NCBI GenBank assembly: GCA_003971905.1
Contig: RSEE01000116.1
Span: 62,001 to 126,000 of the forward strand
Length of the DNA stretch: 64,000 nt
From: Moniliella sp. 'wahieum'
Lineage: Eukaryota
Direction: 5' to 3'
Positions 49,782 to 62,200 of this stretch are shown one piece after another. Below the pieces are notes generated by a model. The model ran no database searches. It worked only from the letters and a program-made list of their open reading frames with translations, and was not told the DNA's origin. The first letter of the stretch is position 1; each line of letters begins with the position of its first letter. The translations under genes and the position numbers were made by a program.

Positions 49782-51305
49782 TCAGTTGCGATCCAGGTGC
49801 GTCCCGGTGGGGTGGGGTGCGGGCGGCACCAGGCTACTTTCCCTCGACGGGTCGGGCGTGGTGGGACGCACGAGCGGGTCCGTGCCGCCAACGGGCAGAG
49901 TGAGCGCGCGAGCGTCAGCGACGAGGAAACTGTACCAGATGAGCGTGATGGGGATGGTGGCGCCATGCCAGAGAGCGTGCGCATCCAACACACGCCACAG
50001 CGCGGGAAAGTCCAGCAGTTCGAGCGAGCTGGCAGCGACCATGGCCACGGCCAGGAGGTAGAGCGTGCGTCTGCGGCGCGGCAGCGGCGTTGTCTCTGGT
50101 TGGCTCGGCCAAGAGGCGGGGAAAGCGGACTTGGCCGAGGCCGAGGAGTCGCAGGGGGGAGCGACGCCTGTCGGGTGAGCCCGCGGACCGTCGTCCGGCT
50201 CAAAGGCAGAGGTGTGGCCGTGGACAGGGCGGAGACCCATCTCAAACTGCTGCGGTTCCTCGTGCAGAGGCACGCTGGAGGGAAGCGGGAGATGCGCACG
50301 GCCGGCTTCCCACCCGCCCGGGTAGAGCGAGGGGCGAATGGCGTAGGCCAACAGCGCCAAGATCTGCGCCAGGGCCACCACAACATTGGCCGTCATGTTT
50401 GTACTGGTAGTCGAACCGGCCCAAGGAGAGGTAAGAGACGTGCAGGATGTAGGCAGCACGCACACGAGGGCCAGTTGGTAGTACTCCGTTGCGGTCGGCC
50501 GTCGACCGTGTCGGTGGCGGGGGAGGAGGTGGCGGGGCGGGCGGACCAGCGCAAGAGGCGCACGATGGTGAAAGAAGAGGTGCAGGACGGCGGCGCCGGC
50601 CGAGAAGTAGTCCATCTTCTCGGTCCAGGCCTTGTCGCGCGTGTGGAAGACGGCGGACCAGGTCCAGGCATTGAGGTTGACCAGCGCGTGGCCGAGGTGA
50701 GGGCTTGAGCGGGAAGGCGTCGGGGACCTCGGTCCAGACGCGCTGCAGCCGTACAGGTGGACGGCCCAGTTGCCCAGGCTAAACAGGACGCTCATCGGCT
50801 CTTGGGCGCCGGCGAGACGGACAAAGACCCTTGCCGTGGTACTGCACCATCTCCTTCTGGATCAACGGCAGGCCGGCCAAGGAGGCAGTCACCAGCTCGT
50901 CCTCTCTGCTGCGTGCGGCGGGGTCGGCCGGGCGGCGGCCGGGCGGCACAGCGCCGGCGCCGCCGAGGAGGGCGAGCCGATGCGGACCTGGGCGCGGATG
51001 TTGGCGACGCGGCTCTCGGCCTCGTTGGTGATCTGGTGCATGCAGTGGTACTCGAGTCCTCCTCGCTCGCATGTCCACCCGGTCAGGCGGAGGAAGAAGG
51101 GGAGCGGCGGGGGTGTTTGGCGAAGCGGCCGGTGCGGCCATCGTCAACGCCGTCGGGGCCACAGACGTCGGCGATGCGGGAGGCGACGCAGCGCTGGAAC
51201 TCGTCGGAGCGGTCGCCGAGGGAGGCGAGGCGGAGGCGGCGCAGAAGAGGAGGGCGAGGAGGAAGAGGAGGGGCGGGCGGCGGAACGCAGCGTGGTCGGG
51301 GCCAT
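49782..51305 (-). CDS. PER1: GPI lipid-remodelling protein Per1/PGAP3 (CREST superfamily)
   Basis: ASLGDRSDEFQRCV, YHCMH, MVQYHGK, QEPMSVLFSLGN, NAWTWSAVFHTRD..TEKMDYFSA and LELLDFP..LDAHALWH. Several frameshifts. Confidence 0.92.
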
Positions 51306-54966: not shown

Positions 54967-56294
54967 GGCACGTGCACGCGCAGCAGCAGGGCGAAGGCGA
55001 AGGAGATGGTGGTCGGGACAGACAAGCCCAGGACAGTGACGTGGGCAGAAATACTTGGTTTCCAGTAGCGCATGTCGAGTCACTCACTATAGTCGGGCCT
55101 CGGGCCTCAGGCGCAGGCCCGGTGGGCTCGGCGGCGATGCGCGGCACAAACCAATCTCCCAAGCGTCACTTCCCGGCGCGCTGGTCTGGCCTGAGCGCCC
55201 TGAGCGCTCAGCTGAGCCTGAGCCTGGCCGCTCGGAATCACACGAGTCATCCAACGCGTCCGCCAGATCCCAGACCAGGATCAGACGCAGCACCCACGCC
55301 CTCGCAGCTCCGAAATCTGCCATCGGACATACACTTCGTATCTCCGGCTCGAGCGTGGCCGCCGGGATGTACATCATGATGCTTCAAGCGTCATGACTTG
55401 AGCGCAGGCAGCAACACCTCAGCCGCTCCCCTCACCCCTCTCTCATCGCCTCATCCCATCCCATCGCTGGCACGACCCATCACTGCCTTCTCTCAGATCT
55501 CCGCGCCCACTGGGCACCAGGACCGCCGGCAAAGGTACAAACCAACCCGCATCCGCCCCCCAAGCTACTCTGGGTCTTCTAGAGGTGTTGGTGCCGCTGT
55601 GATGGGGCCGATGGCAGATGCACATGGCCATGGCTATGGAAATCACTACAGCAGAGGCAACCAGAAACCACAGTGGAGGGGAGCGGTAAACGTGTGGTAA
55701 ACCCCAACGCCCTGCTACACCAACATCGCAGCAGCTGGCCCATGCTCTGGGTGTTGGTGATCCATTACTAGTTACTGCTTGTCCGTACAAACACATTCGC
55801 ACGACCTATGGCGGAGACCCACTGGGATTCATGCATGATTCCAGCCACCGCGAGCCTACCTGGGCAGACCATCGCTCTCCACGACGAAGAACGACACGTT
55901 CGACAACAGAGGCTGAGGCGGAACATGGTGCACGATCGATCGCGCATGGTGGCCACTAGGAATGTCTGCCACCTACTCACCGCGCCTCCCCAGTGCTGTC
56001 ACCACGGCCGGCAGCAGTGGCTCGACGCTTCGTCTCCGGTTGCTGAGGTGGAGCAGGCTCGAGGTCGGGGGGCACACGGCGAACTACAATGGAGTAGCGG
56101 TCGGCCGGGACAGAGGAAGGGCGAGTAGGTTGGCCTGCCGTTCGTACCAAAACAACGATGGCCATGGTGTCAGGCAGGACGAAGACGGTGCGTGGCACTG
56201 CTGTGGCGCCCAGTGCGTAGGCGCTGGCACTTGGTCTTGCTTTGCTTTGCTCTGTCCGTACGGGACCCGACCATGGTGCAGACTATTGGTTGAG

Positions 56295-56983
56295 TCAGTC
56301 GTCGCGCTGGACCGGTTCGCCCTTGGTATAGATGATTGTATCCTGGGCCACAAAGCAGTAGTCGCCCGGGTGGGTGTCGATGAGCTTGAATGTGACGTGG
56401 CACAGGCCGCGGCGGACAGTGAACGTGTCACCCCGGTGGACAGGGCGGAAGCCTTCTTGGAAAAAGTAAGGCTGGAGAAACGTGTCGAGGAGGTCGTCGA
56501 GCTCATCATCTCCCATGCCCTCAACCGAGTCGGCCAAGGGCAGGACGTGGATGTACTCGCCGTACGGAACGTCGTTGCAGGCCGAGAGAAAAACCGGGCT
56601 GCCGAACTGGACGCGCAGGTTGCCACATGCGCCCGTGGTTAGGCCAATCTGGCTGTCCTCCATGCCGGGGTCAGACAAGACAAGCAACACCGTTGTCCGT
56701 TTCTCCTCGCCCTGGAGCAAGATGGTGTCCCCACGGGCCAACCCCAGCTCCCGCATCGTCGTTTCGGACAGGCAGGCGACCGAGTCGTCGTCGATCGTCG
56801 ACGCTTCGACAAAGAGTAGGTTGGCGGCTGGAATGCCAGCGGTGGGGGGTCAGATGCCCCGCACGGAATAGGAGGCGAGCGAGCCCGAGACAAGAGGCAC
56901 GTACCGCGCTGCTGGCGCACGGGCGCCGTCGCCGTCGGCTCGGCCGTGGCGGACTTTTCTGCGGGACTGGCGTCGCCGGTCAT
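56295..56983 (-). CDS. Stand-alone Cdc48/p97 N-domain protein (CDC48_N + CDC48_2 only), about 203 aa, 2 exons
   Basis: Exon 1 56983-56905, intron 56828-56904 (GTACGT...CTGAC...CAG), exon 2 56827-56295 in frame: NLLFVEASTIDDDSVACLSETTMRELGLARGDTILLQGEEKRTTVLLVL...NLRVQFG...IHVLPLADSVEG...LQPYF..GFRPVHRGDTFTVR...TFKLIDTHPGDYCFVAQDTIIYTKGEPVQRDD*. Confidence 0.9.
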
Positions 56984-57535
56984 CGTCACAGAGGGTGGGC
57001 AGGTGGGGGGCTGTAGCTGGGAGAGTGGGTGGCCGATGGGCGATGGAGCCCACCTAAGGCCTAGCCGCTGGCCAGGCGGGGGGGGTGAGCAGTGTGTGCA
57101 CCGGTGACCGGTTGTGCAGCTGCGCTGCCATCAACGTTGAAGTTGAGCTTGAACCCGAAGCGACCATCGAGCGTTCTGCTCCCACCGAACCGCCTTTGGG
57201 CAGGGCGAGGGGCGAATGGAGTGGGCCCCATGCCATCTACGCCAAGAAGTATACGGCTGTTGACTACCTCGATTCTGTCGCCGTCTTGACCGCCGTCTGG
57301 GGAGCGGGAAGAGGGCGGAAATGGGTGGTGCGGCCACTCTCTCCGCGTCGCCTGGTGCCAATGCGCGCTTCCTGGCCTGCTACAGGAGCTGCGCGGCAGC
57401 TACGCGCCATGTCCATGTGCCCTTCTTCCCGCCCGATGGGACGCAGGCCGTCTGGAGGAGGAGGAGGCGGCGGCGGCGCCCGAGGTTGCCGTCGTCTGTC
57501 CCGACATCTCCGCTGGCCCCAGCGCAATTCACCGC

Positions 57536-57543
57536 TCACGTGA
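57536..57543. promoter_or_regulatory. Palindromic E-box TCACGTGA in the divergent Cdc48-N/HAT1 promoter
   Basis: Perfect TCACGTGA about 100 nt upstream of the HAT1 ATG. Function is inferred. Confidence 0.4.
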
Positions 57544-57645
57544 CATGTGATACGCTGTGATGACATAAGCAGCGCGACGCGTGCGCATGCGATGCTCGCG
57601 GCGCGCCTCTCCTTCTTCGGGCCACCATCCGACCCATCTCCTGCA

Positions 57646-59124
57646 ATGGCCGACGACGACCGCGTCGACGAACGAGGCCACGACGCTTGCGCTCGTCGGC
57701 ACCCCCCACACCTTCGCCCCGATTCACCTACCCCATCTTTGGCGACGCCGAGGCCGTGTGGGGCTACCGCCACCCGCGCATCCGCCTCGCCCTCGGCTCC
57801 GCCAACCTGCGCACCCTCCTCCACGTCGACTGGCCGCACGCAACGACCAGGCAGGCAAGACGGTGGACGATGTGTCAGGGACGCTGCTGCCATTTCTTGC
57901 GCCTGACGCGCGCCTCGCCTCGTCCGACGAGGACTACCAACAGCTCTGTGCCGAACTCGAGTCCGAGCAGGCCGCCTTCCGCCCGCCGGGCGAGGTCATT
58001 GCCCAATTCACCACCGCGTAAAAAGGCAAGGCGCGCGCTGGGCTTTCCTCCCGTGGTGCGGGCGGGTCGGGCGCCGGGGCTGGGGCTGGAGCCTCGTCCG
58101 CCACCACCCCACCCCAAGACGGACGGAAGTTCGAGATTGTGCGCTGTACCTGGCAGACGCCTGGGTTTGCGCCGCTGTTTCTTCGTTGCGGGTACTGACG
58201 CTGCTCTTCATCGAGGGCGCGTCGTACTTTAGCCTGGACGAGCCTGGGTGGGAATTCTGCTGTTGTACGAGCGGGTGGGCGAGGCAGACTACGTGTTTTG
58301 CCGGGTTTACCTCGCTGTATCACTTTTGGGTGTTCCCGGCCACGTCGCGCGTGCGTCTGTCACAGTTCCTCATCCTTCCCCCGTTCCAGCACCAAGGCCT
58401 GGGCAGTCACCTGTACGCAGCGGTGCACAACCTTGTCCTCCGTGCTGGGCCAGAGACCTTTCCCGCCCGCGCCGGGGGTGGAGGTGAGTGTGGCCGAGTT
58501 GACGGTCGAAGATCCGTCCGAAGCATTTGATGCGCTCCGGGACCAAAACGATTTGCTCCGTCTGCTCCGGCCGGCCGAGGCAGCAGCGCTAGCGCCGATG
58601 GATGGCGTGCCCGTAGTGACCGAGGTGCGCGACGCGCTCGAGGCGGGCAAACTGGTGCCGCCGCTGGACGATGGCTGGGCGCGCCCAGCGCGCCACGCTC
58701 CGCCTCGCCGAGCGCCAGTGGGAACGGCTACTGGAAATGGTGTCGCTCATGGCGGTCGTGCGCGCCGGACGGAGGGAAGGGTGGCGCACGTACCGGCGCA
58801 TGGTCAAGCAGCGTCTCTACCGCAAGAACGCCGACCTGCTCGCGCAGCTGGACGCGACGACACGGCGGGTGAAGCTGCAGGAGACGTATGAGAATGTGGT
58901 GCGCGAGTATGGGGAGCGGGTGGGGGTGGCGGGGCGGAGGCGGAGCTGCGGGAGGGGCTGCCGGCGGACCTTGTGCCGGTGGAGGGGGGGAGGAGGAGGA
59001 GGAGGAGAGGAGGAGGAGGAGAGGAAGACGAAGACGAAACCCCGGCGTGGGTGACAAGCGGACGCTGGCGTGGCTGCAGCAGCAGCTGGGCGCCAACAAG
59101 CGCACTCGCCTCGACGAGCAATAA
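57646..59124 (+). CDS. HAT1: Histone acetyltransferase type B catalytic subunit
   Basis: FTYPIFGDAEAVWGY, FRPPGE, LLFIEGASY, RVRLSQFLILPPFQHQGLGSHLY, ELTVEDPSEAFDALRD and VKQRLYRKN. Frameshifts; the C-terminal end is uncertain. Confidence 0.92.
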
Positions 59125-59239: not shown

Positions 59240-62200
59240 ATGCCGTCCCCGTCGCCGCCGCCGCCCGAGCACGCGCCCCCGCGCTCCGACGCCACCACCG
59301 ACACCGACGCCGACGTCGATGCCGACGACGACGTCGACGGTGCCCCCCCGACGCACCGCCCAAGCCGCCGACGGCCGAGGCCAGCGGCAAGCCGCCGAGT
59401 CGATGCGGCGGTTCAGCTACCTGCTCGGCCAGACCGACCTGTTCCAGCACTTTCTCCGCCTCAAGCAGCAGCGCGACCCTGCCTTTGCTGCCGCCGTCGC
59501 GCGTGCCTCTCCGCACCTCGCCGCGCCATCTGCCGCGGGCAGCGGAGACCACACGCGCCGCGCGCTTCCTGCCTCCTCGTCTTCCGCCCCCGCCGACGCA
59601 AGACCGAGAAGGAGGAGACGCGGAGCTGCTGCAGACCGAGGACGATGTGCATGTGTTTTCCGAGTCGCCGGCATACGTGCATGGCACTCTACGACCGTAC
59701 CATCGACGGGCTGAACTGGCTCGTCTCGCTCTACCACAACCACCTCAATGGCATTCTGGCCGACGAGATGGGTCTGGGCAAGACGTTACAGACGATTTCC
59801 TTCCTTGGCTACCTGAAGCACGTCGCCGGTCTGCCGCGCTACTACCTCGTGATCGTGCCCAAGTCCACGCTGGACAATTGGCGACGCGAATTCACCGCTG
59901 GGTACCCACGTTTGACACGCTCGTCTTGACTGGCACCAAGGAAGAACGCGCCGAGACGATTGCAACGCGCTTGGTGCCCGGTACATTTGATGTGCTGATC
60001 ACGACGTACGAAGTATGTCTGCGGGAAAAAGCTGCGTTGCACAAGATCACATGGGAGTACATTGTGATTGATGAGTGAGAGCGCACCCGGATCAAAAATG
60101 CCAGCTCGCAATTGGCCCAGATTGTCCGCTCTTTCCCCTCGCGCGGCCGGTTGCTGATTACGGGGACGCCGTTGCAAAAACTTGTTGGAACTCTGGGCGT
60201 TGCTCAACTTTCTCCTCCCGGACATTTTTGCCTCCGAAGCCGACTTTCACGAATGGTTTGCCGGTTCTGTTCCGGCTCGGGTTCCGGTTCCGGCTCGGAT
60301 GCTGGATCCGCCGCCCAAGAAGGGCTGTGCAGCAGTTGCACCAGGTGCTGCGGCCGTTTTTGCTGCGCCGGTCAAGGCGGATGTGGAGAAGAGTTTTGTT
60401 ACCGAAAAAGGAGGTGAATCTGTACGTGGGCATGACGGAGATGCAGCGGAAATGGTACAAGGCCTTGTTGGAAAAGGACATTGATGCTGTCAATGGTTTC
60501 GGTCGGCAGCAAGGAAGGCAAACGCGACTGCTGAACATTGGTGATGCAGCTGCGCAAGTGCTGCAACCATCCGTACCTGTTTGATGGCCGAGCCCGGACC
60601 GCCCTATACAACAGACGAACACCTGGTCCAGAACGCGGGCAAGATGCTGGTGCTGGACAAACTATTGCGCTACCTCAAGGCCAAGCAGTCTCGTGTCCTC
60701 ATCTTTCCCAAATGAGCCGCTGCTGGACATTCTAGAGGATTACTGTTACCTCCGCGTATGGTACGTCCCGCTCCTGTTTTTTATTTTGGCTGTTTGTTTT
60801 CTTTCTCTGTTCTTACCTTGCTCACCTGCCCCCTGTCCCCACCCAGAGTACTGCCGAATCGACGGCAGCACGCGCACGAGGACCGCGTGGCGGCGATTGA
60901 CGAGTACAATGGCCGGGCAGCAGCAAATTTGTGTTTTTGCTCACGACGCGCGCGGGCGGGTTGGGCATCAACCTGACGCGGCAGATGTGGTGTGCTGTTT
61001 TGATAGCGACTGGAACCCGCAGGCGGATTTGCAAGCGATGGACCGTGCCACCGGATCGGGCAGACGAAACAAGTGTACGTGTATCGGTGGTAACGGAGCA
61101 CGCGGTGGAGGAACGTGTGCTGGAACGGGCGCAGCAAAAGCTTGTTGGACCAGCTTGTGATCCAGCAGGGACGGACCGTACCCAAGGGACAGAGTAAAGC
61201 CGAGTTGGTGGATATGCTGCAGCATGGTGCCGAGCAGATCATCCGGAACGATGCGCCGCTCTTGGCTGACGAGCAATTGAGCGCATCATGCCGAGGGGAA
61301 GAGCGCACACAGGCGCTGCAAGCCAAGTATGCGCATTTGGGACTCGACGCACTCACGGCACACAGCGAGGGCGGGACGTACGAATGGGAAGGCAAGGATT
61401 TCCGTCCGGACGCGACTGGACCCAAGCGACTGTGGATCGAACCGGGCAAACGAGAACGTCATATCAACTACAACATTGATGGGTACTATCGTCAGATTTC
61501 CGGTGTGCCCGCGCGCCAAGCCCATCGGCCCCCGCGACCACATGGCCTGCTCGCGCTCAACGAGTGGCAGTTCTTCCCGCCCCGCCTCGCCGAGCTGCAG
61601 GAGAAGGAAGTGCTGGCGTTACCAAAAGCGTGGGGTACGTGCCGCCGGTGCGGGTCAATGGAGGGGGAAAGCGAGGCGGAGGCCGAGGCGGCGCAGCAGG
61701 CCGAGCAGGCGCAGATTGAGCAGGCAGAGGCGTTGACGGAGGAGGAGCAAGCAGAGAAGGCGCAGCTGGCCCAGCAGGGGTTCCCCACGTGGTCCAAGCG
61801 CGACCTGAGCTACTTTGTGCGCGGGTGCGAGAAGTACGGCCGCGGGGCGTACCGCGAGATGGCGGCCGACTGGCTCGACGGCGAGGGCGGCAAGACCGAG
61901 GCGGAGATCCGTGCGTATGCGCGTGTGTTTTTTGCGCGGGGCGCGGCGGAGCTGGAAGGATGGGACAAGTATGTGGCGCGGATCGAGGAGGCGGCCGGGC
62001 GGCGCAAGAAGGCGCAGGCGCAGGAGAAGGCGGCGGGCGTGGGTGGCGCAGTACGGCGGGCAGATGGGCGCGATGGAGCTGCCGTATGCGAGCGGCACGT
62101 CGGCGTACAGCGAGACGGAGGACAAGTTTCTGCTTGTGCGGCTCGCGCACACGGGCTGGGCGAGGGCGTGTACGACACGATCCGCCACGAGATCCTCGCC

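Follow-up and report, generated by a model that had tools for sequence, protein, structure and literature searches.

A gene for a free-standing, strongly diverged Cdc48/p97-type N-domain in a smut-like basidiomycete

Cdc48 N-domains outside the hexamer

Cdc48/p97 is among the most conserved and most studied machines of eukaryotes, and its regulation is understood almost entirely as competition between cofactors for the six N-domains that a hexamer carries. Isolated N-domains are a standard laboratory reagent for cofactor binding, and the isolated N-domain of VAT has ATP-independent chaperone activity. The same two-barrel fold (a double-psi barrel plus a beta-barrel) is also found without an ATPase in the UT3 domain of the Cdc48 cofactor Ufd1, which acts by binding, including the binding of ubiquitin.

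Here we describe a gene encoding a Cdc48/p97-type N-domain only, located in a 64-kb stretch of DNA that is referred to as the window. Such N-only proteins are annotated in Aspergillus versicolor (OJI99273.1 / XP_040665036.1, 191 aa, 'CDC48 N-terminal subdomain domain-containing protein') and Penicillium crustosum (CAI7617193.1, 161 aa), with relatives P0108, P0109, P0118, P0124, P0138 and P0152. Linnemannia elongata contains proteins of 501 and 515 aa named 'CDC48 domain 2-like protein' (KAG0064075.1 / KAH7054818.1) that have no AAA domain, and one metagenome family consists of 181-aa N-only proteins. In the ESM Atlas, CDC48_N/CDC48_2 proteins of 157-199 aa form clusters from archaea, plants, giant viruses and Ascomycota; some of these proteins are perhaps fragments. 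No functional study of eukaryotic N-only Cdc48 proteins was found in the literature searched, and none of 12 matching passages of PMC5070193 mentions them. An earlier note on this DNA had suggested that the gene could belong to an undescribed layer of the Cdc48 system; this stands as far as function is concerned and does not stand for the architecture, which is annotated in the three genera named above. The protein described here, hereafter called the query, is a real further member of these catalogued, uncharacterised proteins.

The N-domain of Cdc48/p97/VCP (PF02359 and PF02933; PDB 3qc8, 5x4l, 1e32) shares its fold with the query over the full length of the latter. In Cdc48/p97 this domain is joined to the D1 and D2 AAA rings, whereas the query is free-standing and contains a four-residue acidic insertion. 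Compared with Ufd1 UT3 the query is much closer in sequence to Cdc48, and it lacks the UT6/SHP tail by which Ufd1 docks onto Cdc48. The proteins of the A. versicolor/P. crustosum group resemble the query in having CDC48_N and CDC48_2 without an ATPase and in evolving fast. They share 31-36% identity with it, and together with their relatives they have a non-aromatic residue at position 52 in seven of eight rows, where the query has Ala. The Eurotiales N-only clade, together with the canonical row P0016 next to it, has a support of 100/98; the query falls outside this clade, in a polytomy, which suggests that the two may be of separate origin. The L. elongata protein is likewise an ATPase-less fungal Cdc48 N-domain paralogue and is the second-best HMMER match (E 3.8e-49 over two stretches, 40% identity). 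It differs from the single-domain query in having two N-domains in tandem and a 150-aa tail without a Pfam match, and its two N-domain copies pair together (99/87), apart from the query.

Gene structure and absence of an ATPase motor

The N-only gene is located on the minus strand (56983..56295) and has two exons, which together give a CDS of 612 nt comprising 203 codons and a single terminal stop. The features of the gene and its flanks are:

Exon 1, 56905..56983, minus strand: 79 nt, ATG at 56983, 26 codons plus one base (MTGDASPAEKSATAEPTATAPVRQQR + G)
Intron, 56828..56904, minus strand: 77 nt, phase 1, with GTACGT donor, CTGAC branch site and CAG acceptor (read directly)
Exon 2, 56298..56827 plus the stop, minus strand: the entire N-domain of Cdc48/p97 (double-psi barrel Nn and beta-barrel Nc), corresponding to p97 residues 24-193
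TGA stop, 56295..56297, minus strand: inside the N-D1 linker, two residues past the equivalent of p97 R191
3' flank, 55073..56294, minus strand: about 1.2 kb, non-coding, down to the probable start of a GNAT-like minus-strand gene
Intergenic region with HAT1, 56984..57560, no strand assigned: HAT1 is divergent, on the plus strand, from about 57.6 kb

These splice signals, with the branch site about 25 nt upstream of the acceptor, and the single terminal stop agree with the earlier description of an intact spliced reading frame of about 203 aa with a canonical phase-1 intron. The translation of exon 1 is a low-complexity N-terminal lead-in, as is present ahead of the N-domain in Cdc48. Exon 1 is required for a complete domain, because the frame of exon 2 is closed by a stop just upstream (56850-56852) and has no ATG ahead of the domain start. 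The reading frame ends with ...KGEPVQRDD* at the N-D1 linker, as had been noted before, and the p97 counterpart reads ...EGEPIKRED. A second in-frame stop follows three codons past the TGA; since no homopolymer run of at least 3 adjoins the TGA, a length error at this position is unlikely.

An open frame by itself is weak evidence for a gene, because the window, with a GC content of 63%, has 296 stretches of 120 aa or more without a stop; it is homology that lifts the N-only gene far beyond chance. The GC content at the three codon positions is flat in the interval 56826-56975, which spans the intron and the greater part of exon 1 (0.74/0.70/0.72). It is 0.60/0.40/0.84 where exon 2 begins, and exon 2 as a whole has a GC3 of 0.81 and a GC2 of 0.39. 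This coding-type periodicity stops exactly at the TGA, and in every 150-nt window of the 3' flank the contrast between codon positions is at most 0.22, without the pattern of high GC3 and low GC2. As error-ridden neighbouring genes also retain coding-type GC3, the signal reflects past, and not necessarily present, coding use.

On the other side of the presumed bidirectional promoter that the N-only gene would share with HAT1 (56984..57560), Hat1_N matches are found in the plus-strand open reading frames 57564-58229 and 57569-58018, and an Acetyltransf_1 match in 57907-58527. The start of the GNAT-like gene near 55072 was read from the sequence by eye. The neighbours of the N-only gene also include a Per1 open reading frame. 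The earlier note had pointed to the lack of frameshifts, unlike most neighbours. Of the six breaks read in neighbouring genes, five change the length of a homopolymer run by a single base, for which assembly error is the simplest explanation, and so the intactness of the N-only gene relative to its neighbours is no sign of selection. HAT1, ISWI and the GNAT-like gene all contain such homopolymer indels, and the sixth break consists of an in-frame TGA plus six extra bases in the DEAH box of ISWI. Given such errors in the assembly, base-level details, including the exact C-terminus of the N-only protein, carry some risk.

When exon 2 (P0001, 176 aa) was compared with PDB by phmmer, residues 2-176 matched residues 24-193 of the human p97 N-domain with an E-value of 8.8e-44. 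This settles the homology even though the Pfam CDC48_N match (E 3.9e-8, profile positions 4-84 of 85) scores 33.8 bits, under the curated cut-off of 35.1. The CDC48_2 match (E 8.3e-5, profile positions 7-63 of 64) scores 22.6 bits with a cut-off of 22.4, and the query has no match to a UFD1 family at E <= 1. The AlphaFold2 model of the N-only protein has a pLDDT of 96.7 and a pTM of 0.90. Its best 50 Foldseek matches are all p97/Cdc48 N-domains (TM 0.87-0.94, rmsd 1.1-1.8 A), among them 3qc8_A, an N-domain of p97 in cofactor complexes (TM 0.93, rmsd 1.2 A). Both subdomains are thus present, and the predicted fold is that of a complete Cdc48/p97-type N-domain, as the earlier note had proposed; the HMM check that it had called for is part of these results.

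The window contains no trace of the motor to which this domain is joined in Cdc48. Patterns for Walker A, GYDDIGG and Walker B gave zero matches each in all six frames of the 64 kb, which extends an earlier observation on the 3' side of the gene to the whole window. A tblastn comparison of four Cdc48-type proteins with the window likewise detected neither D1 nor D2; the N-domain alone was matched (E 1e-31 to 6e-45), and all matches outside it had E >= 0.058. Three-frame translation of the 3' flank (55073..56294) yielded no D1-like sequence. The combination of D1, D2, Walker motifs and GYDDIGG that characterizes full-length members of the Cdc48/p97 AAA+ family is not present at this locus.

Sequence divergence and the cofactor cleft

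The identity of the query to canonical N-domains is about 43-46%, with a maximum of 46% over the full domain, and its terminal branch measures 0.91 changes per column, versus 0.05-0.3 in most canonical AAA-bearing rows. In both trees it stands alone on this long branch, within a polytomy. A HMMER search of 1.84 billion representatives gave 1328 hits, the best of which are canonical-type N-domains with 37-46% identity, and no orthologue was found among them. Word-based protein searches with the N-domain, at near and longer lengths, gave nothing at E <= 1e-3. A pattern scan of metagenome contigs with P0001 produced 337 matches, none of which was confirmed, and the same type of scan with P0126 detected two loci that cover residues 100-128 only, with 50% identity. 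P0131, which like the query carries additional residues in two loops, was considered as a distant orthologue and is at most a lead, as its identity is 36% and it does not group with the query.

In spite of this divergence, all 12 columns that are invariant in 20 canonical-type N-domains are kept in the query, as are 30 of the 41 columns conserved at 85% or more, and the alignment with p97 over 176 codons contains two in-frame indels only. Conservation of every invariant fold position on such a long branch, at an identity of at most 46%, argues for evolution under constraint in what is a strongly diverged Cdc48 paralogue. The strong divergence from Cdc48 reported previously is confirmed, and the pattern of conserved columns points to the long retention proposed with it. 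Two details of that divergence are also seen in the alignment with p97: GKKRRE is aligned with GEEKRT in the query, and an acidic insert of four residues (DDEL) follows the EG(M/I) turn. The possibility that this insert results from two compensating frameshift errors was rejected, as the other two frames, read by eye, do not contain canonical-like sequence.

The groove between the subdomains has changed as well. With respect to p97, the cleft carries the changes F52A, A142G and Y143F, and basic residues are lost at six positions (K62E, K63E, R83G, R86T, R89C and R95Q), whereas D35, V38, R53, Y110, Y138, R144 and R155 are kept. Phe52, which we take to be part of the inter-subdomain hydrophobic pocket that binds UBX, is present in 15 of 20 AAA-bearing rows; Phe or Tyr occupies this position in four of 13 N-only rows, and the query has Ala. 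The net charge of the query is -18, versus -13 to +3 in 20 canonical-type rows. The 141-145 loop reads QEGFRP in the query and EAYRP in p97 and is one residue longer; its spacer has five residues, and four in 124 of the 135 motif matches among the hits. Passages of PMC5389986 name Tyr110, Tyr143 and the 141-EAYRP-145 loop as elements of cofactor interaction, and describe VIM and VBM as basic helices that bind through ionic contacts. As judged from its residues, the query has neither the canonical loop nor the Phe52 expected of a cofactor-competent cleft.

The earlier note had suggested that the protein could be a decoy for canonical Cdc48 cofactors. The substitutions F52A and Y143F, the longer loop and the loss of the basic residues at positions 62, 63, 83, 86, 89 and 95 weaken that suggestion. 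Because of the remodelled cleft and the net charge, it is doubtful that the query would act as a simple decoy for canonical UBX cofactors.

Possible roles of the N-only protein

The explanation that we favour, and to which we give an even chance, is that the gene encodes a free-standing N-domain derived from a diverged Cdc48 paralogue and acting as a monomeric, ATP-independent binding module with an altered range of partners. A paralogue of the essential Cdc48 of the organism would have lost the AAA motor, or never gained it, and would then have evolved at about ten times the rate of most canonical N-domains, keeping the fold and rebuilding the surface. Lacking both an ATPase and the D1 contacts on which the Cdc48 hexamer depends, the N-only protein can act by binding only, most likely as a monomer and via the groove between its two subdomains. 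In view of the changed groove (F52A, Y143F and the longer 141-145 loop) and the strong acidity, an altered partner range is to be expected and not a faithful mimicry of Cdc48. Judging by charge and cleft residues, the most plausible partners would be helical motifs rich in arginine, as in VIM and VBM, or else a lineage-specific partner, and the N-only protein might buffer these or divert them away from Cdc48.

The intact, constrained fold with a canonical cofactor cleft that is not preserved would also fit a protein with a partner that is not a Cdc48 cofactor, for instance a binder of ubiquitin or ubiquitin-like proteins in the manner of Ufd1 UT3, or an ATP-independent holdase like the VAT N-domain. 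The tendency of N-only proteins to lose Phe52 fits this too, as do faint UFD1_N2 matches in the N-only proteins P0089 (E 0.0065) and P0004 (E 0.00026), both of which are below the cut-off. We nevertheless consider it improbable: the query lacks any UFD1 match at E <= 1, the sequences and structures closest to it all belong to Cdc48/p97 N-domains, and the cofactor-relevant cleft residues Y110, R53, D35 and R144 are still present. It is equally improbable, in our opinion, that the gene is a functionless relic. It would then have arisen by partial duplication of CDC48, or of a diverged paralogue resembling Cdc48, and would have gone out of use without acquiring a disabling lesion so far. Such a relic would account for the very long branch, the loss of key conserved surface residues and the lack of an orthologue in the protein and metagenome contig searches, and open frames are cheap at this GC content. 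However, drift to about 45% identity should not have spared all 12 invariant positions (under uniform loss, approximately 0.45^12, or about 7e-5), and it would have had to leave all three intron signals, the contrast between GC3 and GC2 and a 176-codon alignment with only two indels, both in frame. Neither is there a decayed D1 remnant downstream.

Since HAT1, ISWI and the GNAT-like gene contain homopolymer errors, one may ask whether the N-only gene really encodes a full-length ATPase of the Cdc48 type that has been deprived of its AAA part by misassembly, by a wrong base call at the stop or by unrecognised splicing to distant exons. This is very unlikely. No frameshift can restore an AAA domain, because AAA-like sequence is absent from every frame of the 64-kb window, and the coding periodicity ends at a stop that is one of two within four codons, away from any homopolymer. 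No plausible GT donor precedes this stop; the sole GT there, read by eye, is GTCCAG. In addition, an N-domain as diverged as this one cannot come from the 5' end of the canonical CDC48, and the complete N-only proteins P0126 and P0089 terminate at the same point.

Taken as a free N-domain with an altered partner range, the query allows a wider reading, which we put forward tentatively and regard as unlikely rather than probable: free-standing, fast-evolving Cdc48 N-domains would have arisen repeatedly in fungi (in this smut-like basidiomycete, in the Eurotiales, in Linnemannia and in at least one further clade) and would make up a so far overlooked class of proteins that modulate the Cdc48 network independently of ATP. 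In each copy the groove between the subdomains would have been re-tuned, here together with a strong surface acidity, so that the protein would capture a subset of cofactor motifs, such as the arginine-rich VIM/VBM helices, or new partners. The remodelled groove is at the same time a caution against assuming contact with the Cdc48 system. If the wider reading is true, free N-domains would set the amount of cofactor that reaches the Cdc48 hexamer, and a cell making loose N-domains would gain an extra, stoichiometric means to buffer or redirect Cdc48 cofactors. As the annotations of Aspergillus, Penicillium and Linnemannia contain similar genes that have escaped notice, the question can be tested in tractable fungi.

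Anatomy of the gene and frame breaks in its neighbours

The N-domain gene has two exons on the minus strand. Its exons, intron signals and stop were re-read in the sequence, and the coordinates and anatomy proposed in the earlier note are correct:

56983, minus strand: ATG, opening the 79-nt exon 1 (MTGDASPAEKSATAEPTATAPVRQQR plus one base)
56904..56828, minus strand: phase 1 intron of 77 nt, with a GTACGT donor, a CTGAC branch site about 25 nt from its 3' end and a CAG acceptor
56297..56295, minus strand: TGA closing the 533-nt exon 2

The spliced coding sequence of 612 nt contains 203 codons and a single terminal stop. Exon 1 is required, because a stop shortly upstream closes the exon 2 frame, whose earliest internal Met falls within the domain. 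The surrounding genes are:

57.56 to 58.5 kb, plus strand: HAT1 ORFs, upstream of and divergent from the N-domain gene, with Hat1_N and GNAT matches
59.1-62.4 kb: ISWI-type remodeller beyond HAT1, with SNF2, HAND and SLIDE domains
about 54.0-55.07 kb, minus strand: GNAT-like gene, downstream, with weak GNAT matches only (E 0.05-0.15)
49.8-50.9 kb (ORF 49785-50861), minus strand: Per1

Ustilaginomycotina (Sporisorium, Acaromyces, Parajaminaea, Kalmanozyma, Pseudozyma) supply the closest matches of the Per1 ORF, at only 35-40% identity. The DNA thus probably belongs to a smut-like basidiomycete that lacks a close relative in the protein collection. The remaining window holds ordinary housekeeping genes (OPT transporter, carnosine N-methyltransferase-like, GMP synthase, PCI/Rpn7-like, DOCK and others), and no known Cdc48 cofactor was found among them.

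It had been proposed that the gene is intact, unlike its frameshifted neighbours. Six frame breaks were read in three neighbouring genes (HAT1, ISWI and GNAT-like). These are not introns, because Pfam profile coordinates continue gap-free from one frame to the next: in ISWI, the stretches matching SNF2 positions 4-73 and 68-133 overlap at 59884-59902, and Hat1_N positions 28-70 and 76-125 are separated by 12 nt in HAT1. At the base level, five of the six alter the length of a homopolymer run by one base, with the expected sequence at each break deduced from translation continuity:

about 59893: ISWI, CCC to CC
about 60180: ISWI, extra A in an A-run
about 57838: HAT1, G or C run
about 54300: GNAT-like gene, GG to G
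about 54215: GNAT-like gene, C-run

These five are most simply explained by error-prone base calling and suggest an unpolished assembly rather than gene decay or pseudogenes. The sixth break, in the ISWI DEAH box, consists of an in-frame TGA (60076-60078) and six extra bases; it falls outside the homopolymer pattern and may reflect either true damage to the gene or an assembly error of a more complex kind. Helicase motif II (60070-60095) reads IDE*ERTRIKN here, where we take IDEAHRIKN to be the expected motif, and of the extra bases about five follow GAG and one lies in a C-run. The N-domain gene is indeed intact, but the contrast with its neighbours does not hold as a sign of selection: because their breaks mostly look like base-calling errors, it says nothing for selection that a gene of 612 nt is free of frameshifts.

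A Cdc48-type N-domain without an AAA motor

The 176-aa exon 2 product (P0001) matched isolated human p97 N-domain chains with an E value of 8.8e-44, its residues 2-176 corresponding to p97 24-193. Pfam CDC48_2 scored 22.6 bits in P0001 (cut-off 22.4), and CDC48_N 33.8 bits (E 3.9e-8), slightly under its cut-off of 35.1. The AlphaFold2 model, built from a 74-row alignment, has a mean pLDDT of 96.7 and a pTM of 0.90. All of the best 50 PDB matches of this model by Foldseek are N-domains of p97/Cdc48 (TM 0.87-0.94, rmsd 1.1-1.8 Å), many of them in complexes with UBX, SHP, VIM or VBM ligands. Alignment with p97 also bore out the details read from the sequence earlier, i.e., the change of GKKRRE to GEEKRT, an acidic insertion of four residues beyond the EG turn, and a C-terminus at KGEPVQRDD, whereas p97 runs on into the N-D1 linker.

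The absence of the motor, likewise claimed before, was upheld by a six-frame motif scan, tblastn and downstream translation. Searched with regular expressions, the 64-kb window showed no Walker A, GYDDIGG linker or Walker B motif in any of its six frames, and tblastn with four Cdc48-type proteins (628, 880, 812 and 299 aa) matched only the region 56298-56828, all else having E values of at least 0.058. The coding signature of this genome (GC3 about 0.8, GC2 about 0.4), seen in the Per1, ISWI and GNAT-like ORFs (GC3 0.78-0.80), spans exon 2 (GC3 0.81, GC2 0.39; contrast 0.38-0.44) and is gone at the stop; in the 1.3 kb beyond it the codon-position contrast is at most 0.22 and the coding pattern is absent. 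No D1-like sequence was seen on translating the region past the stop in three frames, and the single GT shortly before this stop reads GTCCAG, a poor donor. Because an ATPase is present in no reading frame anywhere in the window, the sequence errors of the neighbours matter little for this finding.

Divergence, constraint and the cofactor groove

Searched exhaustively with HMMER against 1.84 billion cluster representatives, the N-domain gave 1328 matches at E ≤ 1e-3, 22 of them at E ≤ 1e-30, and none was a close relative. Rows covering the full domain share 33-46% identity with the query. It stands alone within a polytomy both in a 98-row tree made by a quick method (branch length 0.78) and in a 32-row tree made by a careful one (0.91, versus 0.05-0.3 for most canonical-type rows). 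Nevertheless, of the columns in 20 canonical-type rows, the query retains all 12 that never vary and 30 of the 41 conserved at ≥85%; we chose these rows ourselves, and 16 contain AAA motifs, while P0008, P0009, P0012 and P0023 lack them yet have short branches among the canonical rows. Two in-frame indels suffice to align the query with p97, and by our own arithmetic the chance that uniform decay to about 45% identity leaves 12 of 12 invariant positions is about 7e-5. Because of this pattern of conservation, we conclude that the fold has probably been under purifying selection over most of the gene's history. That this solitary, long-branched gene is a relic is, next to the retained columns, less likely.

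Passages of a review on p97 cofactors (PMC5389986) describe UBX/UBXL domains and VIM/VBM helices as docking in the hydrophobic cleft between the two N subdomains, with Tyr110 and Tyr143 as key residues for UBX/UBXL, the 141-EAYRP-145 loop participating in such interactions, and the arginine-rich VIM/VBM motifs bound largely via ionic contacts. In p97 numbering, transferred via the alignment, the query keeps D35, V38, R53, D55, Y110, Y138, R144, R155 and R191, and carries the substitutions F52A, K62E, K63E, R83G, R86T, R89C, R95Q, A142G, Y143F and R159C. In p97, F52 lines the UBX pocket. There is one additional residue in the 141-145 loop, whose spacer has five residues in the query and four in 124 of the 135 motif occurrences counted in the search hits, and four acidic residues are inserted before the Nc helix. 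With a net charge of -18, the query is the most acidic of the 36 domains compared (canonical-type rows, -13 to +3). Judged from these residues, the groove is part kept and part rebuilt, which would argue against a faithful decoy for UBX cofactors and is compatible with an altered specificity, possibly for basic helices. A partner unrelated to the Cdc48 cofactor system is a less likely alternative.

Other stand-alone N-domains and the standing of the gene

Complete proteins consisting of the N-domain alone (N-only) occur in Aspergillus versicolor (OJI99273.1, 191 aa, named "CDC48 N-terminal subdomain domain-containing protein" in UniProt) and Penicillium crustosum (CAI7617193.1, 161 aa). Further N-only homologues are a group of 243-268-aa relatives and a 181-aa metagenome family (P0126) that likewise ends at the linker, and Linnemannia elongata KAG0064075.1/KAH7054818.1 contain a pair of N-domains and lack an ATPase. 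The careful tree unites the Aspergillus/Penicillium group and a canonical row in one clade (support 100/98) and pairs the two Linnemannia domains (99/87); the query lies outside both. This topology is consistent with several independent origins of N-only proteins, the query itself being in a polytomy. Position 52 is F or Y in 4 of 13 N-only rows, versus F in 15 of 20 AAA-bearing rows, so that F52 tends to be lost in N-only rows.

Several observations concern individual homologues. The Aspergillus/Penicillium clade comprises P0089, P0100, P0108, P0109, P0118, P0124, P0138 and P0152, of which P0108, P0124 and P0152 have a 57-68-aa tail with an EALI(P/T) motif at or ≤8 residues from the C-terminus. 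The tandem N-domains of the Linnemannia proteins (P0004/P0153) precede a 150-aa tail without a Pfam match, and the second copy aligns with a gap of about 14 residues in the psi-loop region of Nn. N-only P0131 (221 aa) has extra residues in both query loops (after the EG turn and in 141-145) and Cys at the R89 position; it shares just 36% identity with the query and does not group with it. Additional CDC48_N/CDC48_2 proteins of 157-199 aa form clusters in the ESM Atlas, which count as leads only. Nucleocytoviricota (giant viruses) are the commonest source of two ESM Atlas clusters of hypothetical proteins of 157-193 aa (feature score 0.92-0.93), in which a minority of members have CDC48_2 or CDC48_N; these may be viral stand-alone N-domains. 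P0058, whose cluster members come from Endozoicomonas spp. (WP_257287249.1 and others), is a 1172-aa bacterial AAA ATPase of marine-animal symbionts; its internal N-domain (residues 401-571) matches the query N-domain at E 1e-24 and is placed by the tree among rows from eukaryotes, so that this symbiont protein may be a eukaryote-like Cdc48.

No paper about N-only Cdc48 proteins of eukaryotes came up in full-text literature searching, and the passages of the Cdc48-family survey PMC5070193 displayed by term search do not mention them. The N-only kind is already catalogued in database annotation and unstudied, and the Moniliella gene is a further case. Most probably, the gene encodes a genuine Cdc48 N-domain protein that is under constraint, lacks a motor and works through binding. 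The cofactor-decoy mechanism specifically, which the earlier note had put forward beside a chaperone role, is possible but less plausible given the remodelled groove. An N-only Cdc48 gene merits attention in a tractable fungus.
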